DNA of 64,000 bases from an uncultured Acidobacteriota bacterium (GTDB lineage Bacteria; Acidobacteriota; Thermoanaerobaculia; UBA5066; Gp7-AA6), in contig CAVXOX010000005.1 of the NCBI GenBank assembly GCA_963763535.1, positions 27,605-91,604 on the forward strand, given 5' to 3'. This document shows positions 35,876-63,013 of this stretch, in pieces; position 1 is the first letter of the stretch, and every line of letters starts with the position of its first letter. A program made the translations under genes and the position numbers. Under the pieces are notes generated by a model. That model did not search any database. It had not been told where the DNA came from and was given only the letters and a program-made list of their open reading frames with translations.

Positions 35876-36901
35876 ATGCGCGACGTTCTCGACGACATCG
35901 AGCGGTGGCGCTCCGAGGGAAAGCCCGTGGCGCTCGCGACCGTGGTCGCGACATGGGGTTCGGCGCCGCGCGCGGTCGGCGGGAAGATGGCCGTGGCCGA
36001 TGGGAGGCACATCGCGGGCTCGGTCTCCGGCGGCTGCGTCGAGAACGCGGTGGCCGAGGCGGCCAGCGAGGTTCTCAAGACCGGTAAGCCGAGGCTCCTG
36101 AGGTTCGGCGTCTCCGACGATACGGCCTGGAGCGTCGGGCTCGCCTGCGGCGGCGCGATCGAGGTGTTCGTCGAGCGGCTCGCCGACTCGGCCTACGGCC
36201 TCGTCCGGGATGCGCTAAGGGCGGAGCGCTCTGTGGCCGTGACGACCGTCATCAACGGACCCGCGGACGCCGTGGGGCGCAAACTCGCGATCTCCGCCGA
36301 CGGGCGCACCGCCGGCGATCTCGGCGACCCGATCGATCGCGAGACGCGGGCCGCGCTCGCCGACGGTCGCAGCCGCCGGGTCACGATCGGAGAAGACGAG
36401 ATCTTCGTCGACGTGCTCCTCCCCTCCCCTCGCCTCGTGGTCGTCGGCGGCGTGCACATCGCGGTCGCGCTCGTGAAGCTCGCGCAGGCGCTCGGCTGGC
36501 GGACTGTGCTCGTCGATCCGCGGGAGGCGTTCGGCAACCGCTCGCGCTTTCCCGACGTGGACGACATCGTCTGGGACTGGCCGGACGCCGCCCTCGCGAA
36601 GCTCTCCCTGAACGAAGACACCGCGGTCGCCGTGCTGACCCACGACCCGAAGCTCGACGACCCCGCGGTCTCGGCCGCGCTCGCGAGCCCCGCCTTCTAC
36701 GTCGGCGCGCTCGGGAGCAGCCGGACGCAGGAGAAGCGCCGCAAACGCCTCCTCGCCGCCGGGCCTGACGGAAGGAGAGCTCTGGCGCGCCTCCACGCGC
36801 CGATCGGCCTCGACCTCGGCGGCCGCGCGCCGGAGGAGATCGCGCTCTCGGTCATGGCCCAGATCGTGGCGGCGCGCCACGGGAAGGCGAACGCTCCGTG
36901 A
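35876..36901 (+). CDS. xdhC: XdhC/CoxI family molybdoenzyme maturation (Mo-cofactor insertion) protein
   Basis: XdhC_CoxI N-terminal domain and XdhC_C Rossmann-like domain (VVVGGVHIAVAL). Confidence 0.85.
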   Translation: MRDVLDDIERWRSEGKPVALATVVATWGSAPRAVGGKMAVADGRHIAGSVSGGCVENAVAEAASEVLKTGKPRLLRFGVSDDTAWSVGLACGGAIEVFVERLADSAYGLVRDALRAERSVAVTTVINGPADAVGRKLAISADGRTAGDLGDPIDRETRAALADGRSRRVTIGEDEIFVDVLLPSPRLVVVGGVHIAVALVKLAQALGWRTVLVDPREAFGNRSRFPDVDDIVWDWPDAALAKLSLNEDTAVAVLTHDPKLDDPAVSAALASPAFYVGALGSSRTQEKRRKRLLAAGPDGRRALARLHAPIGLDLGGRAPEEIALSVMAQIVAARHGKANAP

Positions 36902-42515: not shown

Positions 42516-42758
42516 GCGCCGCGAGTCTAGCGCGCCGCGATGGGGAACGCCGCCGGTGAAGCTACAAACTCGGGGCGTCATGTCGCCGGCTCGACGGCGC
42601 CGGTTCGTGTGCGGGCGTGGTCTCGGTGCAGCTGCCACCAGGTGGACCACTTGCCGACTCGGCAGCGTCACGGACCCCCGCGCGAGGTGCGAGGGAACGC
42701 ACCGGCCGGTACGGTGCGACGCCTCGGGCTACAATCGTCGCGCGGCCCAGGCCCAGCC

Positions 42759-45700
42759 ATGATCTGTCCGCAGTGTCAGACGCCCAACCCCGACGGCATC
42801 GCGTCGTGTTCTCACTGCAGCAGTGTCTTCCCCGCCGCCGACCCGACGCGGAAGTTCGTGCCTGACGACGCTCCCGAAATGCCCACCATGGCGAGCCCCA
42901 CGTCGCTCGAGGAATGGGTGAAGAGCCGGCCGACGGGCGGCATTCCCGTCGCCTCCGTCCTGCCCGAAGGGCTCGAGATCGCCGACCGCTACCGGGTTCG
43001 CAAGCTCCTCGGCATGGGTGGCATGGGCGCCGTCTACCTCGTTCACGACAGCGAGCTCGATCGGGACGTGGCGCTGAAGCTCATCCGGTCGGACATCGGC
43101 GAGAACCCCGAGGCGCTCGAACGTTTCAAGCGGGAGATCCAGCTCTCGAGCAAGGTCACGCACAAGAACGTCCTGCGGGTCTACGACCTCGGGGCCTCCG
43201 GCGGCATCAAGTACCTGACCATGCAGTTCGTCGAGGGCGAAGATCTCTCGACGGTTCTCAAACGTGTCGGGAGGCTGGAAACCCCGCGTCTCACGCGCAT
43301 CTTCCGGCAGATCGTCGAGGGGCTGCGGGCCGCCCACGAGCAGGGCGTCATCCACCGCGACCTGAAGCCTCAGAACATCATGCTCGACGCCTCCGACAAC
43401 GTCTACGTCACGGATTTCGGCCTGGCGAAGTCGCTCGAGCAGTCGGGCATGACGCAGACCGGGGCCATCGTCGGTACGCCGTACTACATGTCGCCGGAAC
43501 AGGTGAAGGGTTCGGCGATCGATCACCGATCCGACATCTACTCGCTCGGCGTGATCCTCTACGAGATGTCGACGGGCCGTCTCCCCTTCACCGGCTCGTC
43601 GCCCTACGAGGTGATGGCCCAGCGCCTGCAGCGCGTGCCGGAGCCGGCGAGCAGGATCAACCCGGATCTGCCGTCCTACCTGTCGAAGATCCTCGAGCGC
43701 TGCCTGATGATCGACACGGCCGCGCGTTACCAGTCGGTCGAGGAGATCCTAAGGGATCTCGACGCCGGCGGCTTCCGGACGACGATGCGCTTCGAGGTCG
43801 CGAAGAGGCCGTGGCTTCGGCCCGCGCTGGCCGTCCTCCTTGCCGCCGTCGTCCTGGGGGGCGCGGCCATCGCCTTCCGAGGCCGACGGGCCGGGCCGAC
43901 GGCACCGCAGCCGAGCCAGCCAGGCGCCGCGAACCAGCCCGTGTCACTGGCGATCCTGCCCTTCCGCAACGCCTCGGGCGACTCTTCCCTCGACTGGCTC
44001 GGACCGAGCCTGGCCGAGATGCTGCGGACCGACGTGGGACGCTCGGCGTCGCTGCGGACCGTTCCGTCGGACAGGCTTCATCAGATCCTGGGGGACCTGC
44101 GGATCTCCGCCGACTCGACGTTCGACCCGCCCACGCTCCGAAAGCTCGCGAAGTTCAGCAACGCGGACACCGTCATCTGGGGGCAGTACCTCAAGTTCGG
44201 CAATGAGATCCGGATCGACGCCACGCTCGAAGACGTCAAACGGCAGCGGTCCATCGCGCTGAAGGCGCAGGCTCCCAGCCAGAGCGGCCTCCAGGCCGCC
44301 ATCGATCAGCTCGCCCAGTCGATCCGCGACGGTCTTTCGCTTTCCTCGGACGCGCTCGAGGAACTGAAGGCCACGGCCTTCAAGCCGTCCACGAAATCGC
44401 TCGAGGCGCTGCGCGCCTACAACGAAGGGCTCCAGCTCGCCCGCCAGGGCAAGAATTCCGAGGCCCTGAAGAAGTTCCAGGAGTCGATCCAGGCCGATCC
44501 GGAGTTCGCTCTCGCGTACGCGAAGCTCGGCCAGACCTACGCGAGCCTGGGGTACGACACCGAGGCCGAACAGAGCTCGCGCCACGCCGTGGAGCTGTCC
44601 GAAAAGCTCCCCGCGCCCGAGAAATTCCTCATCAATGCCAGCCACGCGCGGATCGTCAACGACACCGACAAGGCGATCGCGGCCTACGAGGCCCTGGCCA
44701 GGGCGTCACCGGAGGATTCCGAGGTCAACTTCGAGCTGGCCGCCCTCTACGAGGCCTCGGGCGCCTTCGACCAGGCGCGCGCCCACTACAAAAAGGTCCT
44801 CGAGCGCGATCCGAAGTACGTCGCCGCGCTTCTGGCGTCGGGCCGTGTCGAGATCAAGGCCGGAAACCCTCAGGGATCGCTCGACTTCCTGAACCAGGCT
44901 CTGAGCCTGGCCATCCAGCTCGGGCAGGACGAGGAGAAGGCCGACGTGCTCCACGCCATCGGGGCCGCCTACCAGGGCCTCGACAAGCCGAGCGAGGCGC
45001 ACCGTTACTACCAGGAATCGCTCGAGATCAAGCGCCGGATCGGCCAGAAGCGCGGCATCGCCGTGACCCTCGGGCGAATCGCCCAGGTCCAGGAGCAGCT
45101 GGGCAATCTGGATGCCGCTCTGGCCAGCTACAAGGAGGCACTGCAGATCCAGCGCGAGATCGGCGACAAGAAAGGAACCGGCCTGACCCTCATCGACCTC
45201 GGCGACTTCCTCTCGAACCGCGGGAACTACGACCAGGCGCTGCAGGATTACAAGGAGTCGCTTCAGATCCAGCGCGATGTCGGCAACCAGGATGCAGAGG
45301 GCCTCTGCCTGAACAACATCGGCAACGTCTACCTCTTCAAGACGCAATACGACGACGCCCAGACGTACTTCGAGAGAGCGCTCCAGATCCGTGAGAAGAC
45401 CAAGAACCCCCTTGACATCGCCGACACTCTGCACAACCTCGCCGAGACCGCGACGAACAAGGGGCAGTACGATCTGGCGCTGAAGCACTACCTGCGCTCC
45501 CTCGAGCTGCGGCGGGAGGCCGGCGACAAGCGGGGCGCGGCCATCGAGTCGTACAGCATGGGGACCCTGTTCGAGTACGAGGGGAAGTACGGAGCGGCGG
45601 TCGGCGCGAAGGAGGATGCGCTCAAGACCTTCCGCGAGCTCCAGGACAGCGGCTTCTGGATGGGCGAAATCCTGAGCGGAACCGGGCATTCCCAGGCCAT

Positions 45701-46316
45701 GCTCGGACGATCGGACGCGGCACAGACGCAGCTCGCGGAGGCGTTGAAAGTCGCCGACACGCTCCAGAACAAGGCCCTGACGGCTCAGATCCTGAACTTT
45801 CAGGGCGACCGGCTCTTCTACGTCGGCGACGCCAGGGCCGCGCGACCCCTCTACGAGCAGGCGCTCCAGACCGCGTCGAAGACCGGCGACAAGCGCCTCG
45901 AGCTGCTCTCGAAGGTCAATCTCGCGAAGACCGCGATCGCCGAGGGGCGCGCCCAGTCGGCGATCGAGGGGCTCAAGAAGCTGGCCGAGGAATCCGACTC
46001 GCTCGGCCTGAAGTACCTGTCGGTCGAGAGCACCGTCCTGCTGGGCCAGGCGCTCGTCCAGGCGAGGCGCTACCCTCAGGCCCGCCAGGAGCTCGAGCGC
46101 GCTCTCGCGAGAAGCGAAAAGCTCGGCCTGAGCGCCCTGCTGGCGCGCAGCCACTACCTGCTTGCTTCGGCGCTGCGGTCCACCGGCAACGGCGCAGAGG
46201 CCTCCCGGCACCTCGGCGAGGCCCGCCGGATCCTCGACGAGATCCGGAAGGAAGCGAAGACCGACGACGTCGTGAAGCGGGCCGACCTCTCTCCGATCCT
46301 CGCCGAAGCGGGCTGA
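42759..46316 (+). CDS. Serine/threonine protein kinase with an N-terminal zinc ribbon, a transmembrane segment and a long TPR array (1185 aa)
   Basis: The N-terminus has a zinc ribbon (MICPQCQTP...CSHC). The kinase domain carries the Hanks motifs (GMGGMGAVY, VALK, HRDLKPQN, DFGLAK, GTPYYMSPE). A transmembrane helix (ALAVLLAAVVLGGAAIA) is followed by a TPR array of at least 12 repeats. Confidence 0.88.
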   Translation: MICPQCQTPNPDGIASCSHCSSVFPAADPTRKFVPDDAPEMPTMASPTSLEEWVKSRPTGGIPVASVLPEGLEIADRYRVRKLLGMGGMGAVYLVHDSELDRDVALKLIRSDIGENPEALERFKREIQLSSKVTHKNVLRVYDLGASGGIKYLTMQFVEGEDLSTVLKRVGRLETPRLTRIFRQIVEGLRAAHEQGVIHRDLKPQNIMLDASDNVYVTDFGLAKSLEQSGMTQTGAIVGTPYYMSPEQVKGSAIDHRSDIYSLGVILYEMSTGRLPFTGSSPYEVMAQRLQRVPEPASRINPDLPSYLSKILERCLMIDTAARYQSVEEILRDLDAGGFRTTMRFEVAKRPWLRPALAVLLAAVVLGGAAIAFRGRRAGPTAPQPSQPGAANQPVSLAILPFRNASGDSSLDWLGPSLAEMLRTDVGRSASLRTVPSDRLHQILGDLRISADSTFDPPTLRKLAKFSNADTVIWGQYLKFGNEIRIDATLEDVKRQRSIALKAQAPSQSGLQAAIDQLAQSIRDGLSLSSDALEELKATAFKPSTKSLEALRAYNEGLQLARQGKNSEALKKFQESIQADPEFALAYAKLGQTYASLGYDTEAEQSSRHAVELSEKLPAPEKFLINASHARIVNDTDKAIAAYEALARASPEDSEVNFELAALYEASGAFDQARAHYKKVLERDPKYVAALLASGRVEIKAGNPQGSLDFLNQALSLAIQLGQDEEKADVLHAIGAAYQGLDKPSEAHRYYQESLEIKRRIGQKRGIAVTLGRIAQVQEQLGNLDAALASYKEALQIQREIGDKKGTGLTLIDLGDFLSNRGNYDQALQDYKESLQIQRDVGNQDAEGLCLNNIGNVYLFKTQYDDAQTYFERALQIREKTKNPLDIADTLHNLAETATNKGQYDLALKHYLRSLELRREAGDKRGAAIESYSMGTLFEYEGKYGAAVGAKEDALKTFRELQDSGFWMGEILSGTGHSQAMLGRSDAAQTQLAEALKVADTLQNKALTAQILNFQGDRLFYVGDARAARPLYEQALQTASKTGDKRLELLSKVNLAKTAIAEGRAQSAIEGLKKLAEESDSLGLKYLSVESTVLLGQALVQARRYPQARQELERALARSEKLGLSALLARSHYLLASALRSTGNGAEASRHLGEARRILDEIRKEAKTDDVVKRADLSPILAEAG

Positions 46317-46334
46317 TCGGGCCGGAGTGGACAG

Positions 46335-46364
46335 AAAAAAGCCGGGCTCAGCGGCCCGGCTTTT
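46335..46364. terminator. Bidirectional intrinsic terminator (AAAAAA-GCCGGGC-tcagcg-GCCCGGC-TTTT)
   Basis: Perfect 7-bp GC stem flanked by an A-run and a T-run. It lies between the convergent kinase gene and the Cys-rich pseudogene. Confidence 0.75.
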
Positions 46365-46386
46365 CGACGTTCGAATCTTCCGACGT

Positions 46387-47582
46387 TCAGTGCGGAACCG
46401 TCCCGTCCCACTTCCCGAACGATTTGTACGGGCCGTCGCACGAGAGAACCGGCGCGTGCACCTTCAGGTTCTTCTTCTTCTTCGGCCCGTTACCGGGGTT
46501 CATGCTCAGATCGGCCGAATTGTCGCCGTGGTCGTCGCACTCCCACTCTCCGTCGTCGTCGCCTCGCACCAGATAGAGGGTCGGGGCACCCGGCTCGTCG
46601 AATCGGCTGTTGGCGGCGGCGTCGTTGTACCAGAGTCTCGCGGTGCCGGAGTTCTCGGGGCTATGAGGCAGGAGTTGCGCACGAACAGCTTGATGCTGAC
46701 GTTGTCGCCCGGGCAGAACGCCTCCGTCGGGAACGACAGCGGGATGGTGAGGAGGTTCGCGTTGTTGAACCCCTTGCCGCCTCCCGGCGCGCCGAGAAGC
46801 TCTCCGGAGCTGACCTCGGCGCCGTTCTTCTTCACCACGGCCTTCAGGTCGAACAGGATTCCTGCATCGTTGTCCTTCTTCAGCCCGATCCAGATTCTCG
46901 CCGCCGGAGAGTTGGAACTGGTCAGATCGACCACTTCGTAGTCCGAGAAGCCCTTGCTCTTCCCGCCCACGCCGGGATCGCCGGAACCGGAGTCCCCGAT
47001 GGCGTAGACGGTTCCGGTGATGTCCTGCGTGTAGCACTCGACATACGGGGTACCCGAGCAGTTCTGGGGGTCCTCCTCGGGGATGGGAGCCCGATAGAGG
47101 CGGACGTTGTGGAGCTGGTCGAGCGTGGGAAAGTCCCAGAACACCTTGTAGAGGACATCACCCGAGTAGTCGCAGTCCGTGCAACCGGGGTCGCCCTTTT
47201 GTGGCAGCGGTTCGACGACGTGGTAGAAGCCGCACTCGCCCGCCGGATCGCCGTTGAAGGTGGCCCCGTCGTACGGGATGCAGTTGGCGGGAGCCAGCGA
47301 AGGGATTGAGCCGGGCGGTCCAGCTGGCTGTCATCGGTGAAGAAGAACTGAACTGCCAGAGTGAACGGCCGTTCAACGTTTGCCGTGATCTTGATGAAGT
47401 GCCCGGTCCCGAAATCGAATTTTTGAGTCGACACGCAGGGGTACGAGTCCTCCTGGGCAGGAGAAGTCGTTTCCCTGCAGGGATAGTCGCCTCCTTCAGA
47501 GCAGTGAGACTCGCGGCAATCGACCCTCGCAGAAGTCCTGAGCCCAGGCCGGGCGCGCGAAAAGCAGCGCCGCGAGCACCAC
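46387..47582 (-). pseudogene. Cys-rich secreted protein of unknown family carrying at least three frameshifts, in a lower-GC islet
   Basis: A signal peptide (VVLAALLFARPAWA|QDFCEG) runs straight into a TGA. The protein-like sequence then continues in a second frame (CRESHCSEGGDYPC...FDFGTGHFIKITANVERP...) and a third (GSIPSLAPANCIPYDGATFNGDPAGECGFYHVVEP...KLFVRNSC). After a further shift near 46690 the C-terminus (ARLWYNDAAANSRFDEPGAP...SCDGPYKSFGKWDGTVPH) ends at 46387. The region has markedly lower GC than its neighbours. Confidence 0.5.
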
Positions 47583-47900
47583 ACCGCATCATGATTGCCT
47601 TGAGCTGGATCCTCTTTTCCATGATCCGTCCCTCCTTGAGAGAGTCGACGCGTCAACGGTTTTTGCGGCGGGGCTCGGATTCTCGTGCGGCCCCACGTGA
47701 GCAAGGTCCGGGCGCCCGGGTCCAATGCCCGCGAGCGCGGCAGAAGGCATCAACCACCTCCTTCCTTCAATCAATGGCAGGCGAATCGATCTCTCGCGCC
47801 CGTGCGCCGAGAGGCGGTACGTCTACCTTTTTGTTTGAAGCCGCGAAGTATATCGTCGAACCGACGGCAGGGTTCGAGGCGCCCCGGTGGCTCCAGCCAT

Positions 47901-48713
47901 CTAAGTGTCAGAAAGCAAGGGGCCTCGTCGCCTCTCCTGTCGCCCTAACCCAGCAGCTCCTTCAGGCGCGCGTGCCCCTCGCGGCTGACCGGGACCCGCG
48001 GCTACCGTCCGGCGAGGATCGCGACATGGCTCCCCCTCCCGTAGGCCTCGAGGCGAGCGAGGGCATCGAGGCGCACCAGGTGCGAGCGGTGAACCCGTAC
48101 GAACCGACCCGGATCGAGCGCGGCGGCGAGGCTCGAAAGCGTCTGCTGTCTTCAGGTAGGTCTTGCCCTCGCTCTTCAGGGCGACGTAATCGTCCTGGGC
48201 CTCCGCGGTGTCGAGCTTCTCCACGGGGATGATGTGCACCCGGCTGCCGTCCCGGACGACGATCCGCGTGAGATACGCGCCCTCGGGCCGGGCCGCGGCG
48301 TGCAGTTCGGCGGCGCGGACCGTCGCGCTGTCGGACAGGCGCGCCCGTGCCCGCTCGACCGCGGTCGCGATGCGCGACGCCTCGAAGGGCTTGAGCACGT
48401 AGTCGACGGCGTGGACCTCGAAGGCCTTGACGGCGTAGGCGTCGTAGGCCGTCACGAAGATCGCCGCGATCGCCGGGTCGAGCAGCTCGAGCACCTCGAA
48501 GCCGTCGAGCTTGGGCATCTCGATGTCGAGGAACACGATGCGCGGGGAGAGCTCGGCGGCGGCCCTCAGCGCCTCGAACCCGTTGGCGCACTCGCCGACG
48601 ACGCGCACGCCCGCGATGCCGGAAACGTGCTGCCTCAGGATCGCGCGCGCGGGCTCCTCGTCGTCCACGATGAGGACACCGATCTCCTCCCGGAGGGCGC
48701 CCGTCCCGGTCAC
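47901..48713 (-). pseudogene. LytTR-family response regulator (REC plus LytTR DNA-binding domain) with two frameshifts in the LytTR domain
   Basis: The receiver domain is intact (VLIVDDEEP...FLDIEMPKLDGFEVL...DYVLKPF). The LytTR domain reads ...DYVALKSEGKTYLK in frame 1, QTLSSLAAALDPGRFVRVHRSHLVRLDALARLEAYGRGSHVAILA in frame 2 and RVPVSREGHARLKELLG-stop in frame 3. The junctions are near 48141-48160 and 48001-48020. The GTG start overlaps the kinase gene stop. Confidence 0.7.
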
Positions 48714-49789
48714 ACCGGCATCTCCGCCGGGACCGAGATCACGACGAGGTAGTGGTCGGCCAGGCGCTTGGCGGCGAAGAGCGCCTCCTCTCCGTAGCGG
48801 GCGTAGAGGCGCTGACGCACGTTGGCGAGGCCGCGCCCTCCTCCCGGCCGCGAGGGACTCTCCGGGTCGAAGGGATTCTCGATCATGATCCGGAGCCGCC
48901 CCGCGCCGCACGCGACCCCGACGCGCACCGTGCCCCCCTCGATCCGCGTCGCGATGCCGTGGCGGACGGCGTTCTCCACGAGGGGCTGGAGCAGAAGCGG
49001 CGGGACGAGGCAGCGATTCCCCCGCTCGTCGAGCTCCTCCTCGACTTCCAGGCGCGCTCCGAAGCGCAGCTCCTCGACGGCGAGATAGGCCCGCGACAGC
49101 TCGAGCTCCTCGCCGACGGAGATGCTCGTCTTCTCGCCCAGGGCGAGGCTCCGGCGGAGAAAGTCGCCGAGCCGGACGCACATCTGCTGCGCGCGCGGCG
49201 GATCGGTCGCCGCGAGCGACGCGATCGAGTTCAGGCTGTTGAAGAGGAAGTGAGGCCGGATCTGGGCCTTCAGCGCGGCGAGCTCGGCCTCGCGCGCGAG
49301 GATCTGGAGCTCGGCCTCGCGCCGCTCCGCCTCGGCCGCGGTCTCAAGCGCGAGCAGGACGTAGTTCAGCGCGGCGGCGAGGAGGTACAGGAGCACGCCG
49401 GCCGCGAAGAGCGTGATCGACTGCGCCGCGAACCGCTCGGTCAGACCGGAAAACGCCGGGTGTCCCTGGACGAGAGGCAGCGCCCCGTAGGCGCCGGCAA
49501 GGAGGGCCGCGAGGCCCACCCAGATGCCGGAGATCAGCCCGGCCGCGGCGGCGTGCGTCAGCACCAGCGGCAGTGCCCGCGACCGCGTCAGCGGAAGCTG
49601 CCGGCAGGGATACCAGGCCGAGAGGCCCATGAAGGCGTACGCGAAGGTCAGCGGGATCGCCATCGCCACGGCCTCGCCGAGGAAGAGTCCGCCCGGCCGG
49701 GCGAGGAGCGCCGTCAGGATCGCGGCGATCGGCGCGCACGCCGCGAGGTACGGAAGCAGCCGGCCGCGGTGCGCGAGGATCGGGTGCAT
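48710..49789 (-). CDS. Sensor histidine kinase, LytS/YehU (His_kinase, pfam06580-type) family
   Basis: Five or six transmembrane segments, a coiled-coil, the His-box region (RPHFLFNSLNSIASL) and HATPase_c motifs (PLLLQPLVENAVRHG, GGRGLANVRQRL). Confidence 0.85.
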   Translation of the reverse strand: MHPILAHRGRLLPYLAACAPIAAILTALLARPGGLFLGEAVAMAIPLTFAYAFMGLSAWYPCRQLPLTRSRALPLVLTHAAAAGLISGIWVGLAALLAGAYGALPLVQGHPAFSGLTERFAAQSITLFAAGVLLYLLAAALNYVLLALETAAEAERREAELQILAREAELAALKAQIRPHFLFNSLNSIASLAATDPPRAQQMCVRLGDFLRRSLALGEKTSISVGEELELSRAYLAVEELRFGARLEVEEELDERGNRCLVPPLLLQPLVENAVRHGIATRIEGGTVRVGVACGAGRLRIMIENPFDPESPSRPGGGRGLANVRQRLYARYGEEALFAAKRLADHYLVVISVPAEMPV

Positions 49790-49884
49790 GGGTTACCTCG
49801 TGTGAGGACGTCGGGGCCTGGTGCGCACGAGATCCCTCGTCGCTGCGCTCCTCGGGATGAAAAACTGAACCATGCTTCGCATGG

Positions 49885-50679
49885 TCAGTTTTTCACTTCG
49901 ATGCCGCCCATGAGGATGAACCCGTTCAGCACGAGCGTGCGGACGCGGCCGTCGGCGGGCGGGACCGTGCGGGCCTTGACGTCCGCGCCGCCGAGAAGCG
50001 GCGTCACGTTGACGATCACCTTCCAGCCCTCGGGCACCCGAAAGACGACGCCTCCCATCATGACGAAGATCTCCACGGCGACCTCGTCGCGCGTCAGCGC
50101 GGCCTCCCGCAGGTCGATGTCGAAGCCTCCCGCGATGACCGTGATCGTGCCGCCCCGGAAGTCCGGCGTCTGCACGAGGCGGTGACCGCCGCCGCACAGG
50201 GCGAATTCGTTCAACTCGACGACCGTGCCGCGCCCCGCGAAGGACTCGGTCGCGGCGAGGCCGGCACGCGCGCCCTCGAACGCGCGCTCTCCGGGGTTCG
50301 CGGCGACGCCCGGGGAAGGGCCGCTCATCACGGCCTCGCCCGCGCGCGGCGTCGTCGTCTGCCAGATCAGATACGCGCCGAGCACGACGAGCAGGAACGG
50401 CCACAGGCGATGGAACGGCACCCACAGGAAGCCGAGGTTGCGCAGGATCAGGAGCCCGCCGACGCCGACGAGGATCGCCCCCCAGACGCGCTGACCCGGC
50501 CGCGTCGGATTCAAGAGGCGCGCGAGACCCGGCGCGACGAGGAGGAGCGGCCAGTAGTCCCAGAGCGAGCCCGCGTCGACGAGGCGCAGGTTGTCCAGGA
50601 TGAACAGCGCGCCGAGGAGAACGAGAAACGCGCCGGCGATCACCTTCTCGGTCAGACGGAAGCGCGGTGTGTCACTCAT
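49885..50679 (-). CDS. LiaF-like / DUF2154 membrane protein (cell-envelope stress module partner)
   Basis: N-terminal transmembrane segments, and a C-terminal beta-rich domain with repeated GG(I/V) motifs typical of LiaF_C. Confidence 0.65.
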   Translation of the reverse strand: MSDTPRFRLTEKVIAGAFLVLLGALFILDNLRLVDAGSLWDYWPLLLVAPGLARLLNPTRPGQRVWGAILVGVGGLLILRNLGFLWVPFHRLWPFLLVVLGAYLIWQTTTPRAGEAVMSGPSPGVAANPGERAFEGARAGLAATESFAGRGTVVELNEFALCGGGHRLVQTPDFRGGTITVIAGGFDIDLREAALTRDEVAVEIFVMMGGVVFRVPEGWKVIVNVTPLLGGADVKARTVPPADGRVRTLVLNGFILMGGIEVKN

Positions 50680-61869: not shown

Positions 61870-63013
61870 AGATCCTGATGGCGATCGACTACTACCGGCC
61901 GCACGTGTCGGGGCTGACGCTCTACGCCGAGCACCTGGCGGAGGGCCTCGCGCGGCGCGGCCACGCGGTGCGCGTGCTGACCCACCGGCACGTCCCCGAC
62001 CTTCCGGTCGAGTCCGAGGAGAACGGCGTCGGCGTCGTGCGGGCGCCGGTCGCCGTCCGCTTCGGCAAGGCGCTCGTCTCGCCGGCGATGCTCGCCGACG
62101 CGCTCGCGGAGATCCCGCGCGCCGACGTGCTGCATCTGCACGCGCCGCTCGTCAACGCGATCTCGCTCGCGACGCTCGCCACGACGCTGCGCGTCCCGAT
62201 GGTCGTCACGTTCCACTGCGACCTGCAGACGCCGGCCGGGCCGGGGCAGCGCCTCGTCGAGAGCGTGGCGCGGGTCTCGCAGGACTTCGCGCTCGAGCGC
62301 GCGGCGCGCATCGTCACCTACACCGAGGATTACGCGCGCCACACGCGTTCGCTCGCCGAAAGGATCGAGAAGGTCGGCTGGGTTCGCCCGCCGGTCCCCG
62401 ATCCGCCGGAGACCGGGCGCACCGCGGCACAGGCGCGGGAGCGCTTCGGCGTCCACGGAGAGCCCGTGCTCCTCTTCCTCGGCCGCTTCGCCGAGGAGAA
62501 GGGACTCCCGGTGCTCGTGGACGCCTTCGCGGTGGTGCGCCGCCGCTTCCCCCGCGCGGTCCTGCTGATGGCGGGCGCCCGGGACGTTCCCGGCGAGACC
62601 GTGCTCGCGCGTCTGAAACCGAAGCTGGAGGACCCCGCGTCGGGGCTCCTCGCGCCGGGGATCGTGCCGCCGGAGGAGATCGGCGATCTGTTCGAGATCG
62701 CGGACGTGCTGGTCCTGCCCTCGATCAACGCGACCGAGTCGTTCGGCCTCGTGCAGGTGGAGGCGATGCTCCGGGGCGTTCCCGCCGTCGCGTCCGATCT
62801 CCCGGGCGTGCGCCAGCCCGTGCGCCTGACCGGCATGGGCGAGATCGCGCCGATCGGCGACGCGGCGGGCCTCGCGCGCGCGATCCTGAGGGTGCTGGAG
62901 GATCCCCACGGTACCGCCGGCCGCGCAACGAGATCCGCGCCCTGTTCTCCACCGACGACACTCTCGCCTTCTACGAGGCGACGTACGCGGCGGCGCGGCG
63001 GGGCGGCCCGTGA
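61866..63013 (+). pseudogene. GT4-family glycosyltransferase with a C-terminal frameshift
   Basis: GT4 fold (...EAMLRGVPAVASDLPGV...) is intact to about 62905. The authentic tail (...RNEIRALFSTDDTLAFYEATYAAARRGGP) is in another frame and ends at 63013. The shift lies between about 62900 and 62930. Confidence 0.7.

Follow-up and report, generated by a model that had tools for sequence, protein, structure and literature searches.

Frame breaks in a conserved secreted-protein gene beside a Ser/Thr kinase of an uncultured Thermoanaerobaculia bacterium are most likely assembly errors

The window analysed here, 64,000 nucleotides (nt) of contig CAVXOX010000005.1 (assembly GCA_963763535.1, positions 27,605 to 91,604) from an uncultured Acidobacteriota bacterium of the Thermoanaerobaculia, carries at 46387-47622, on the minus strand, a gene for a predicted secreted protein of two beta-sandwich domains, referred to below as the target gene. 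Its reading frame is interrupted five times. The initial annotation of the region, made from the sequence without database searches, had taken it for a horizontally acquired toxin, bacteriocin or adhesin-like gene that is now inactivated. The analysis gave no support to such an acquired and decayed toxin-like islet: the gene is conserved and specific to its lineage. The frame breaks are most likely uncorrected consensus errors of long-read assembly and the apparent decay an artefact, the gene itself being probably intact in the organism.

The target gene and its frame breaks

As assembled, the gene is split into six pieces across three frames; once repaired, it encodes a protein of about 410 amino acids (aa). 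The features that define it are listed here in window positions.

46387-47622, minus strand: target gene, secreted two-domain beta-sandwich protein, with the ATG at 47622 and the stop at 46387
47631-47637, minus strand: Shine-Dalgarno sequence AAGGAGG, 8 nt upstream of the ATG, conserved in orthologous loci in an alignment of the upstream regions
47542-47622, minus strand: predicted signal peptide, MEKRIQLKAIM/CGVVLAALLFARPAWA, followed after cleavage by QD; the first frame break (slash) interrupts it
47589-47590, minus strand: frame break 1, one extra base; window ATCATGATGCGG, eight relatives CAT-CTGCGG
about 47522 (within 47496-47541), minus strand: frame break 2, one extra base at an inferred site; best reconstruction GAGGGT[C]GATTGC
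about 47317 and about 47301, minus strand: frame breaks 3 and 4, two extra bases 16 nt apart, seen as two extra columns against eight relatives
46663-46664, minus strand: frame break 5, one missing base; window CTCAT-AGC, relatives CTCGCGAGT or CTCGGCAGC

The five hops of the coding signal, which go in both directions, were observed in the three-frame translation, in the phase plot of GC content at third codon positions (GC3), in tblastn searches with intact homologues as queries and in a DNA alignment of the window with eight orthologous loci. Frame changes had already been noticed in the initial annotation and are indeed present in the given sequence, but they number five instead of three, and the gene lies on the minus strand. 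Break 2 falls in a hypervariable Cys-rich linker and its exact position is uncertain. The TGA that results from it, at 47498-47496, is found 15 codons past the AWA cleavage site; the signal peptide does not run straight into a stop codon, as had been thought. Deletion of the extra bases at 47317 and 47301 gives LD-ARLNP-SLAPANC, equal in length to the ARLNTELAPANC of the homologues. The GC3 phase is 0.80-0.95 across the two main downstream pieces and weaker toward the 5' end. Neither a slippery heptamer nor a long homopolymer was seen at the break sites, and no common motif, for example a methylation motif, was evident at the indel sites by eye. Programmed frameshifting and transcriptional slippage were rejected, as the five breaks go both ways and none is present in orthologues.

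Evidence against decay of the gene

The repaired protein keeps all 56 of the invariant columns of its family and 58 of the 61 near-invariant ones; the three conserved columns that it breaks equal the median of three for intact members. Relative-rate tests gave no acceleration in 13 of 15 comparisons, and the two exceptions use an unsuitable outgroup. Judged by these measures, the relaxed constraint expected of a pseudogene does not appear to have acted on the target.

Breaks of the same kind occur elsewhere in the window, where they were detected by a hidden Markov model of GC phase plus inspection.

47945-48713, minus strand: LytTR response-regulator gene, directly upstream of the target, with three single-base frame breaks at about 48149 (+1), about 48010 (+1) and about 47996 (-1), one of which makes an in-frame TAG
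about 23726, minus strand: single-base break in a PhzF-like gene
about 32726 and about 33645, plus strand: single-base breaks in CoxL
about 35720, plus strand: single-base break in CoxM
about 62905-62911, plus strand: single-base break in a glycosyltransferase gene

The breaks in the PhzF-like, CoxL, CoxM and glycosyltransferase genes make at least five beyond those of the target and the regulator; protein-like sequence goes on in the new frame each time, a pattern that suggests general indel errors of the assembly. The repaired regulator has complete Response_reg and LytTR domains and is intact (247 aa) in L017, a near-conspecific Flye-style contig from ENA that is 97-99% identical to the window in the flanks. 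This contig shares none of the breaks of the window and has its own, at least three in the 3' half of the target and at least three in the kinase gene that adjoins it. The lesions were thus not inherited in common with this closest relative. The near-identical flanks of the two contigs, about 17 kb, differ by 17 small indels, mostly extra bases that disrupt open reading frames (ORFs) of L017.

The type of assembly matters. Breaks in the target or the kinase gene were found, at differing positions, in nine of 14 long-read-type loci; the three short-read (k141) loci were all free of them. Out-of-frame stretches are also visible in P0005, a homologue from the database. Twelve of the 15 related genome records are long-read metagenome-assembled genomes (MAGs) of the Microflora Danica (MFD) catalogue. 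These are Nanopore-only metaFlye assemblies with one Medaka polishing round; according to the authors, MAGs of lower coverage contain Nanopore-associated errors (Sereika et al. 2025, PMC12313526). The present locus, whose relatives come from that catalogue, resembles such cases in that single-base indels split conserved genes at positions that differ by assembly and are absent from short-read loci. It differs in that eight breaks fall within 1.5 kb, mostly off long homopolymers, as would be expected if something local, for example strain heterogeneity, were responsible and not the usual homopolymer errors. With conserved residues not lost, no acceleration of rate and the same kind of indel in housekeeping genes, the claim that the gene is now inactivated is doubtful. 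More generally, clusters of frame changes in high-GC long-read metagenomes should not be taken for pseudogenes by default, and housekeeping genes, lesions in conspecifics and conserved residues should be checked; all three checks favour an artefact at this locus.

Conservation of the locus and base composition

The gene faces a kinase gene across a shared terminator.

42762-46316, plus strand: transmembrane Hanks-type Ser/Thr kinase gene, convergent with the target and intact in the window; the start, MICPQCQ, is inferred from an orthologue of 1184 aa
46337-46364, both strands: bidirectional intrinsic terminator, a perfect 12-bp stem with a 4-nt loop, an A-run on the 5' side and a T-run on the 3' side

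The terminator, correctly recognized in the initial annotation, is common to the two convergent genes; its hairpin has a folding energy of -24.2 kcal/mol (z -3.4), and none of 200 shuffled sequences was equally stable. The annotation had also proposed to look for an intact gene at the same site in relatives. Such genes exist, encoding intact proteins of about 397 aa beside the same kinase, and the target was present, convergent with this kinase, in all 17 distinct relative loci, which represent at least three differing genomic neighbourhoods (L018 and L019, mentioned below, are two of the 17 fetched again with gene calls and not extra loci). The kinase of the relatives has 1184-1258 aa, and the stops of the two genes are about 70-170 bp apart. 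The flanking genes vary by clade: E2, LiaF, histidine kinase and regulator genes in the window, VIT1 and PLD in L018, GT4 and BNR in L019.

The initial annotation described a low-GC islet of about 1.5 kb. The GC content is lower than in the surroundings and its computed profile is not uniform: it is 0.625 in the target (46387-47622), against 0.719 and 0.720 for the remaining window, the lowest among 47 coding segments (mean 0.717, standard deviation 0.028). The GC3 of 0.87-0.88, against a mean of 0.94, and the GC at first codon positions (GC1) of 0.59-0.60 are likewise the lowest of the 47. The sharp boundaries were not recovered; the dip spans about 43000 to 48000 and takes in most of the kinase gene (GC 0.668, GC3 0.90). 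GC was measured in 16 relatives and ranges over 0.61-0.67 in the target, 0.64-0.71 in the kinase gene and 0.63-0.73 in the flanks. Since the same low GC is found in these 16 relatives whatever the GC of the flanks, it cannot be taken as a sign of recent arrival: the lower GC is intrinsic to the target family or the gene pair. The locus therefore deviates in composition as an islet would, but it occupies the same site in relatives and is without hallmarks of mobility. A scan of 38-54 kb gave no tRNA gene, there are no flanking repeats (the only repeats found lie within the TPR region of the kinase gene), and no integrase or transposase gene occurs among the neighbouring genes scanned (lipase, kinase, regulator, histidine kinase, LiaF-like protein and E2). 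Nor were immunity or export genes present among these neighbours.

A strain-variable segment

The breaks of the target and the regulator are clustered, 8 of the 13 detected in the window lying within 46663-48149, about 1.5 kb (Poisson P about 6e-12; 0 of 200,000 permutations). They all lie inside a segment that diverges from the near-conspecific contig.

46250-49250, no strand: segment divergent from L017, where identity falls from 97-99% to 67-85%; all eight clustered breaks are inside

The low identity to L017, followed over 46250-49700, extends from the target through the intergenic region and the regulator into part of the histidine kinase gene. Identity between the window and L017 at 4-fold degenerate sites is 93-98% for the lipase, LiaF and E2 genes, 80-88% for the kinase and only 55-62% for the target and the histidine kinase. 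The target allele of the window carries an KGDPGCTDCDYSGD insert, shared with homologues P0002, P0015 and P0001, and is nearer to that of another species (L001) than to the allele of L017, which is of the P0004 type. Because identity and 4-fold sites drop against L017 and the allele types differ, the locus is strain-variable, probably through recombination. The divergent segment 46250-49700 could have arisen by replacement of an allele or by recombination, or else it reflects a consensus mixed from strains. As the history of the segment differs from that of its flanks in the comparison with the near-conspecific contig, some horizontal or recombinational exchange of it is possible.

Similar indications concern the kinase gene and its pairing with the target. 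In comparisons between species (42700-47650 against L001-L017), 4-fold-site identity is 62-79% in the kinase-target block and 49-62% in the E2, LiaF and histidine kinase genes, and the GC of the block, about 0.61-0.71, is nearly constant whatever the GC of the host. These values are compatible with gene flow of the block between species.

A separate mosaic was observed within the kinase gene (43840-46316, plus strand). Against six genomes (L002, L003, L004, L011, L012 and L016), conservation of both nucleotides and aa starts abruptly at the transmembrane segment, at about 43840-43940; in these genomes the periplasmic part is 83-92% identical in aa, against about 45% for the catalytic domain. 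The alignments suggest a domain swap, or recombination, at the membrane boundary.

Alternative explanations

In our view the most likely origin of the five breaks of the target, an ordinary and vertically conserved gene, and of the three in the LytTR regulator is uncorrected single-base error in the consensus of a long-read metagenome assembly. Such errors would gather where co-occurring strains differ: the segment would polish badly for that reason, mixed or thin read support leaving it uncorrected, and this would explain why the breaks are concentrated here. Several observations weigh against this explanation. That the window contig is a Nanopore-only assembly is itself inferred from its relatives, and a near-identical intact copy of the window allele was not found in the searched collections (best 78% aa identity). 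The density of breaks, about 5 per kb, is roughly 60 times the background of the window, the adjoining 3.7-kb kinase gene is unbroken and most breaks lie away from long homopolymers; such a pattern does not agree with purely random errors and requires the assumption of a local cause. Regarding function, the link to the kinase proposed below comes from conserved adjacency, and the two genes are convergent and not co-transcribed.

A true and very recent pseudogenisation, in which multiple small indels inactivated both the target and the regulator in this strain, is improbable in our opinion, even if part of the pattern would suit it: eight breaks sit in two neighbouring genes and none in the 3.7-kb kinase gene or in that of the histidine kinase, most of the eight are unlike classic long-homopolymer errors, and a segment with a history separate from its flanks could be a dispensable imported allele. 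It would require an implausible ratio of indels to substitutions, because five independent indels within 1.2 kb would have left the 56 invariant residues in place, no excess of substitutions and the GC3 phase preserved in the main pieces. Similar indels also break CoxL, CoxM and other genes of the window, and other genes again in L017 and in long-read-type loci, short-read loci being spared.

Still less probable is a chimeric consensus, in which reads of two or more co-occurring populations were merged across the kinase-target block so that both the allele and its indels are artefacts. The block has 80-92% DNA identity between species, which would allow reads to cross-map, the breaks coincide with the segment that diverges from L017, and in the comparison with that contig the indels are often flanked by adjacent mismatches. 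However, the KGDPGCTDCDYSGD insert recurs in alleles that were assembled independently, among them those of a Logan contig (P0002) and of P0015, so that the allele of the window represents a real class, and its sequence is not an obvious patchwork of known alleles. The chimera overlaps with the explanation by uncorrected errors, the errors being artefactual in both, and differs from it on the reality of the allele alone. The acquisition of a toxin, bacteriocin or adhesin islet that has since decayed, as put forward in the initial annotation, is very unlikely. It would account for the lowest GC and GC3 of the window, and for a secreted, Cys-containing product without a named family whose gene has frame breaks, but it is contradicted by the presence of the gene beside the kinase at the same site in 17 of 17 relative loci and by a GC that is equally low in all 16 relatives for which it was computed. 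Searches around the locus revealed neither a tRNA gene nor a flanking repeat, the scanned neighbours include no integrase, transposase, immunity or export gene, and neither the sequence nor the fold of the protein gave a toxin or bacteriocin match.

The protein, its domains and its predicted fold

The explanation by consensus errors leaves a protein that can be described once its frame is restored. Like the homologues, whose signal peptides read MEKRIQLKAV(V/I)FGVALAALLFARP.LAQ, it begins with a predicted signal peptide consisting of a K/R-rich n-region, the hydrophobic core VVLAALLF and a cleavage site between AWA and Q; these parts are conserved, and the gene has the conserved ribosome-binding site in front of it. 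On sequence grounds the product is predicted to be secreted, as had been proposed, by the Sec pathway with an AxA-type signal peptide. A lipoprotein was rejected, as the Cys at position 12 precedes the hydrophobic core and there is no lipobox. The protein is also Cys-rich, with 15 Cys in the 383 aa of the repaired mature form; in the family five Cys columns are invariant and three nearly so. Taken together, the gene would encode a Sec-exported, disulfide-stabilised protein of two beta-sandwiches.

Neither the stitched protein nor its relatives matched any Pfam or NCBIfam family, housekeeping or other, and a profile search against PDB sequences gave no meaningful match to a solved structure. 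The low similarity noted initially holds in the sense that no named family exists, but not in the sense of an orphan: we found 93 homologues, the best of them 72% identical over the full first stitched query, and the repaired protein is 72-78% identical over its full length to intact homologues of 393-397 aa. All homologues with names come from Thermoanaerobaculia or uncultured Acidobacteriota, and the full two-domain family is narrow, comprising few clusters at 50% identity. A search with the family profile matched 1274 representatives of 50%-identity clusters. Among the matches listed beyond the full-length family, nearly all cover only the C-terminal region of about 170 aa, a module that almost invariably closes the proteins in question, which come from several phyla and are roughly 170-1300 aa long.

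about 46387-46940, minus strand: C-terminal domain of about 170 aa, with motifs IW(I/V)GLK..D.G..FDL, ARLWY(N/D)D.AANS and GPKKK; relatives P0066-P0286

No Pfam or NCBIfam model covers this module, and the locus thus exposes a widespread but unnamed domain. The module occurs in proteins with extracellular domains such as Kelch, PQQ, Big_1, PKD and FG-GAP, which makes a role of the target protein at the surface or in adhesion plausible; this part of the earlier idea stands, that of an acquired and decayed islet does not. The module would mediate attachment or binding.

An AlphaFold2 model of P0002, which is 78% identical to the repaired protein, has a mean predicted local distance difference test score (pLDDT) of 81 and a predicted template-modelling score (pTM) of 0.79. 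It starts with the signal-peptide helix at residues 5-20, continues with a Cys-rich linker that is poorly predicted and ends with two beta-sandwiches at about 45-220 and about 226-397. Fold comparison returned weak, generic beta-sandwich matches only; with no match to a Pfam or NCBIfam family or to a PDB sequence either, a toxin or bacteriocin does not emerge. In the model the N-terminal domain, which is lineage-restricted, appears weakly ZU5/GAIN_B-like, and the C-terminal domain is predicted to have a PLAT/C2-like fold with a conserved polybasic GPKKK loop, the family consensus of the basic loop being GPKK(K/T)(R/K). An invariant DPG.xG...(G/K)FSD(F/Y)E(A/V)VD precedes the last strand of the N-domain. 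Here F211, S212 and D213 are invariant, and among 46 sequences position -2 holds Gly 40 times, Lys 6 times and His never; H122 is near-invariant in the family.

Domain duplications occur among the relatives: P0001 (L009, 10001-11773) and P0008, family members of 600 aa and 435 aa, have a tandem-duplicated N-terminal beta-sandwich before the shared C-domain.

A possible partner of the kinase sensor

To our knowledge, no system with this pair of a kinase and a secreted protein has been described. In the kinase, a zinc ribbon and the kinase domain are cytoplasmic, a single transmembrane segment spans about aa 435-460, and a TPR-rich sensor of about 800 aa lies outside the cytoplasm. Since its pairing with the target is the only constant of the locus across genomes, the target protein may be an envelope-associated or ligand-binding protein that works together with the extracytoplasmic sensor. 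As with Hanks-type Ser/Thr kinases with extracytoplasmic sensors that are encoded near envelope-protein genes, a periplasmic-TPR kinase adjoins an exported-protein gene and the pairing is conserved across contexts; the present case differs in that the genes are convergent and form no operon, the link being drawn from gene adjacency. That the periplasmic sensor of a Ser/Thr kinase and a small secreted beta-sandwich protein are paired with such strict conservation in Thermoanaerobaculia offers a lead on what such kinases sense, and there are signs that the pair is exchanged between species.

The C-domain can be compared with the PLAT/LH2 and C2 modules found at the N-terminus of lipoxygenase, at the C-terminus of lipase and of alpha-toxin, and in the C2 domain of PI3K. 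It shares with them a conserved basic loop and differs in having no sequence relationship to them; lipid or envelope binding would follow by analogy.

The N-domain invites comparison with the GAIN_B/ZU5/FIIND domains, including the recently described microbial GAIN (MAIN) domains (Brogan and Rudner 2026, bioRxiv 10.64898/2026.05.12.724683). The target is likewise predicted to be secreted, and its invariant F-S-D is placed immediately ahead of the final N-domain strand, after which comes a possible anchor module, as in the order cargo-MAIN-anchor. It lacks the defining H-x-(S/T) motif, a large N-terminal cargo and any anchor of the sortase, SLH or wall-binding kind, and its size is about 40 kDa, MAIN proteins averaging 158 kDa (bioRxiv 10.64898/2026.05.12.724683). 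Membership in the MAIN domain was rejected, as the H-x-(S/T) motif is absent and the -2 residue is Gly or Lys. By analogy, cleavage between F and S in the manner of ZU5/FIIND is a predicted possibility.

These two lines of thought, a mobile kinase-sensor/secreted-protein module and a His-less autoproteolytic domain, can be joined in one speculative and rather unlikely scenario. The TPR sensor and the convergent secreted-protein gene may form one recombining unit of roughly 3.8 kb among Thermoanaerobaculia, and the N-domain may be a GAIN_B/ZU5 variant predicted to cleave between the invariant F211 and S212. In the latter case the PLAT/C2-like polybasic C-domain would hold the last strand at the envelope, making the protein a releasable partner or ligand of the kinase sensor.

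Other observations

No Rfam family matched between 45.5 and 49 kb. The XdhC-like gene of the window (36761-36779, plus strand) differs from that of L017 by three single-base indels within 20 nt, a compensated frameshift in one of the assemblies, the products being of 341 aa and 340 aa. In the window and in L017, E2 and the target flank the cassette of LiaF-like, histidine kinase and LytTR genes (47945-50679); in L001, L014 and L009 the cassette is found on the other side of the kinase. A misassembly behind the difference in placement from L001 was rejected, as L017 is arranged like the window. The relocation of the cassette is clean and measures roughly 2.9 kb.

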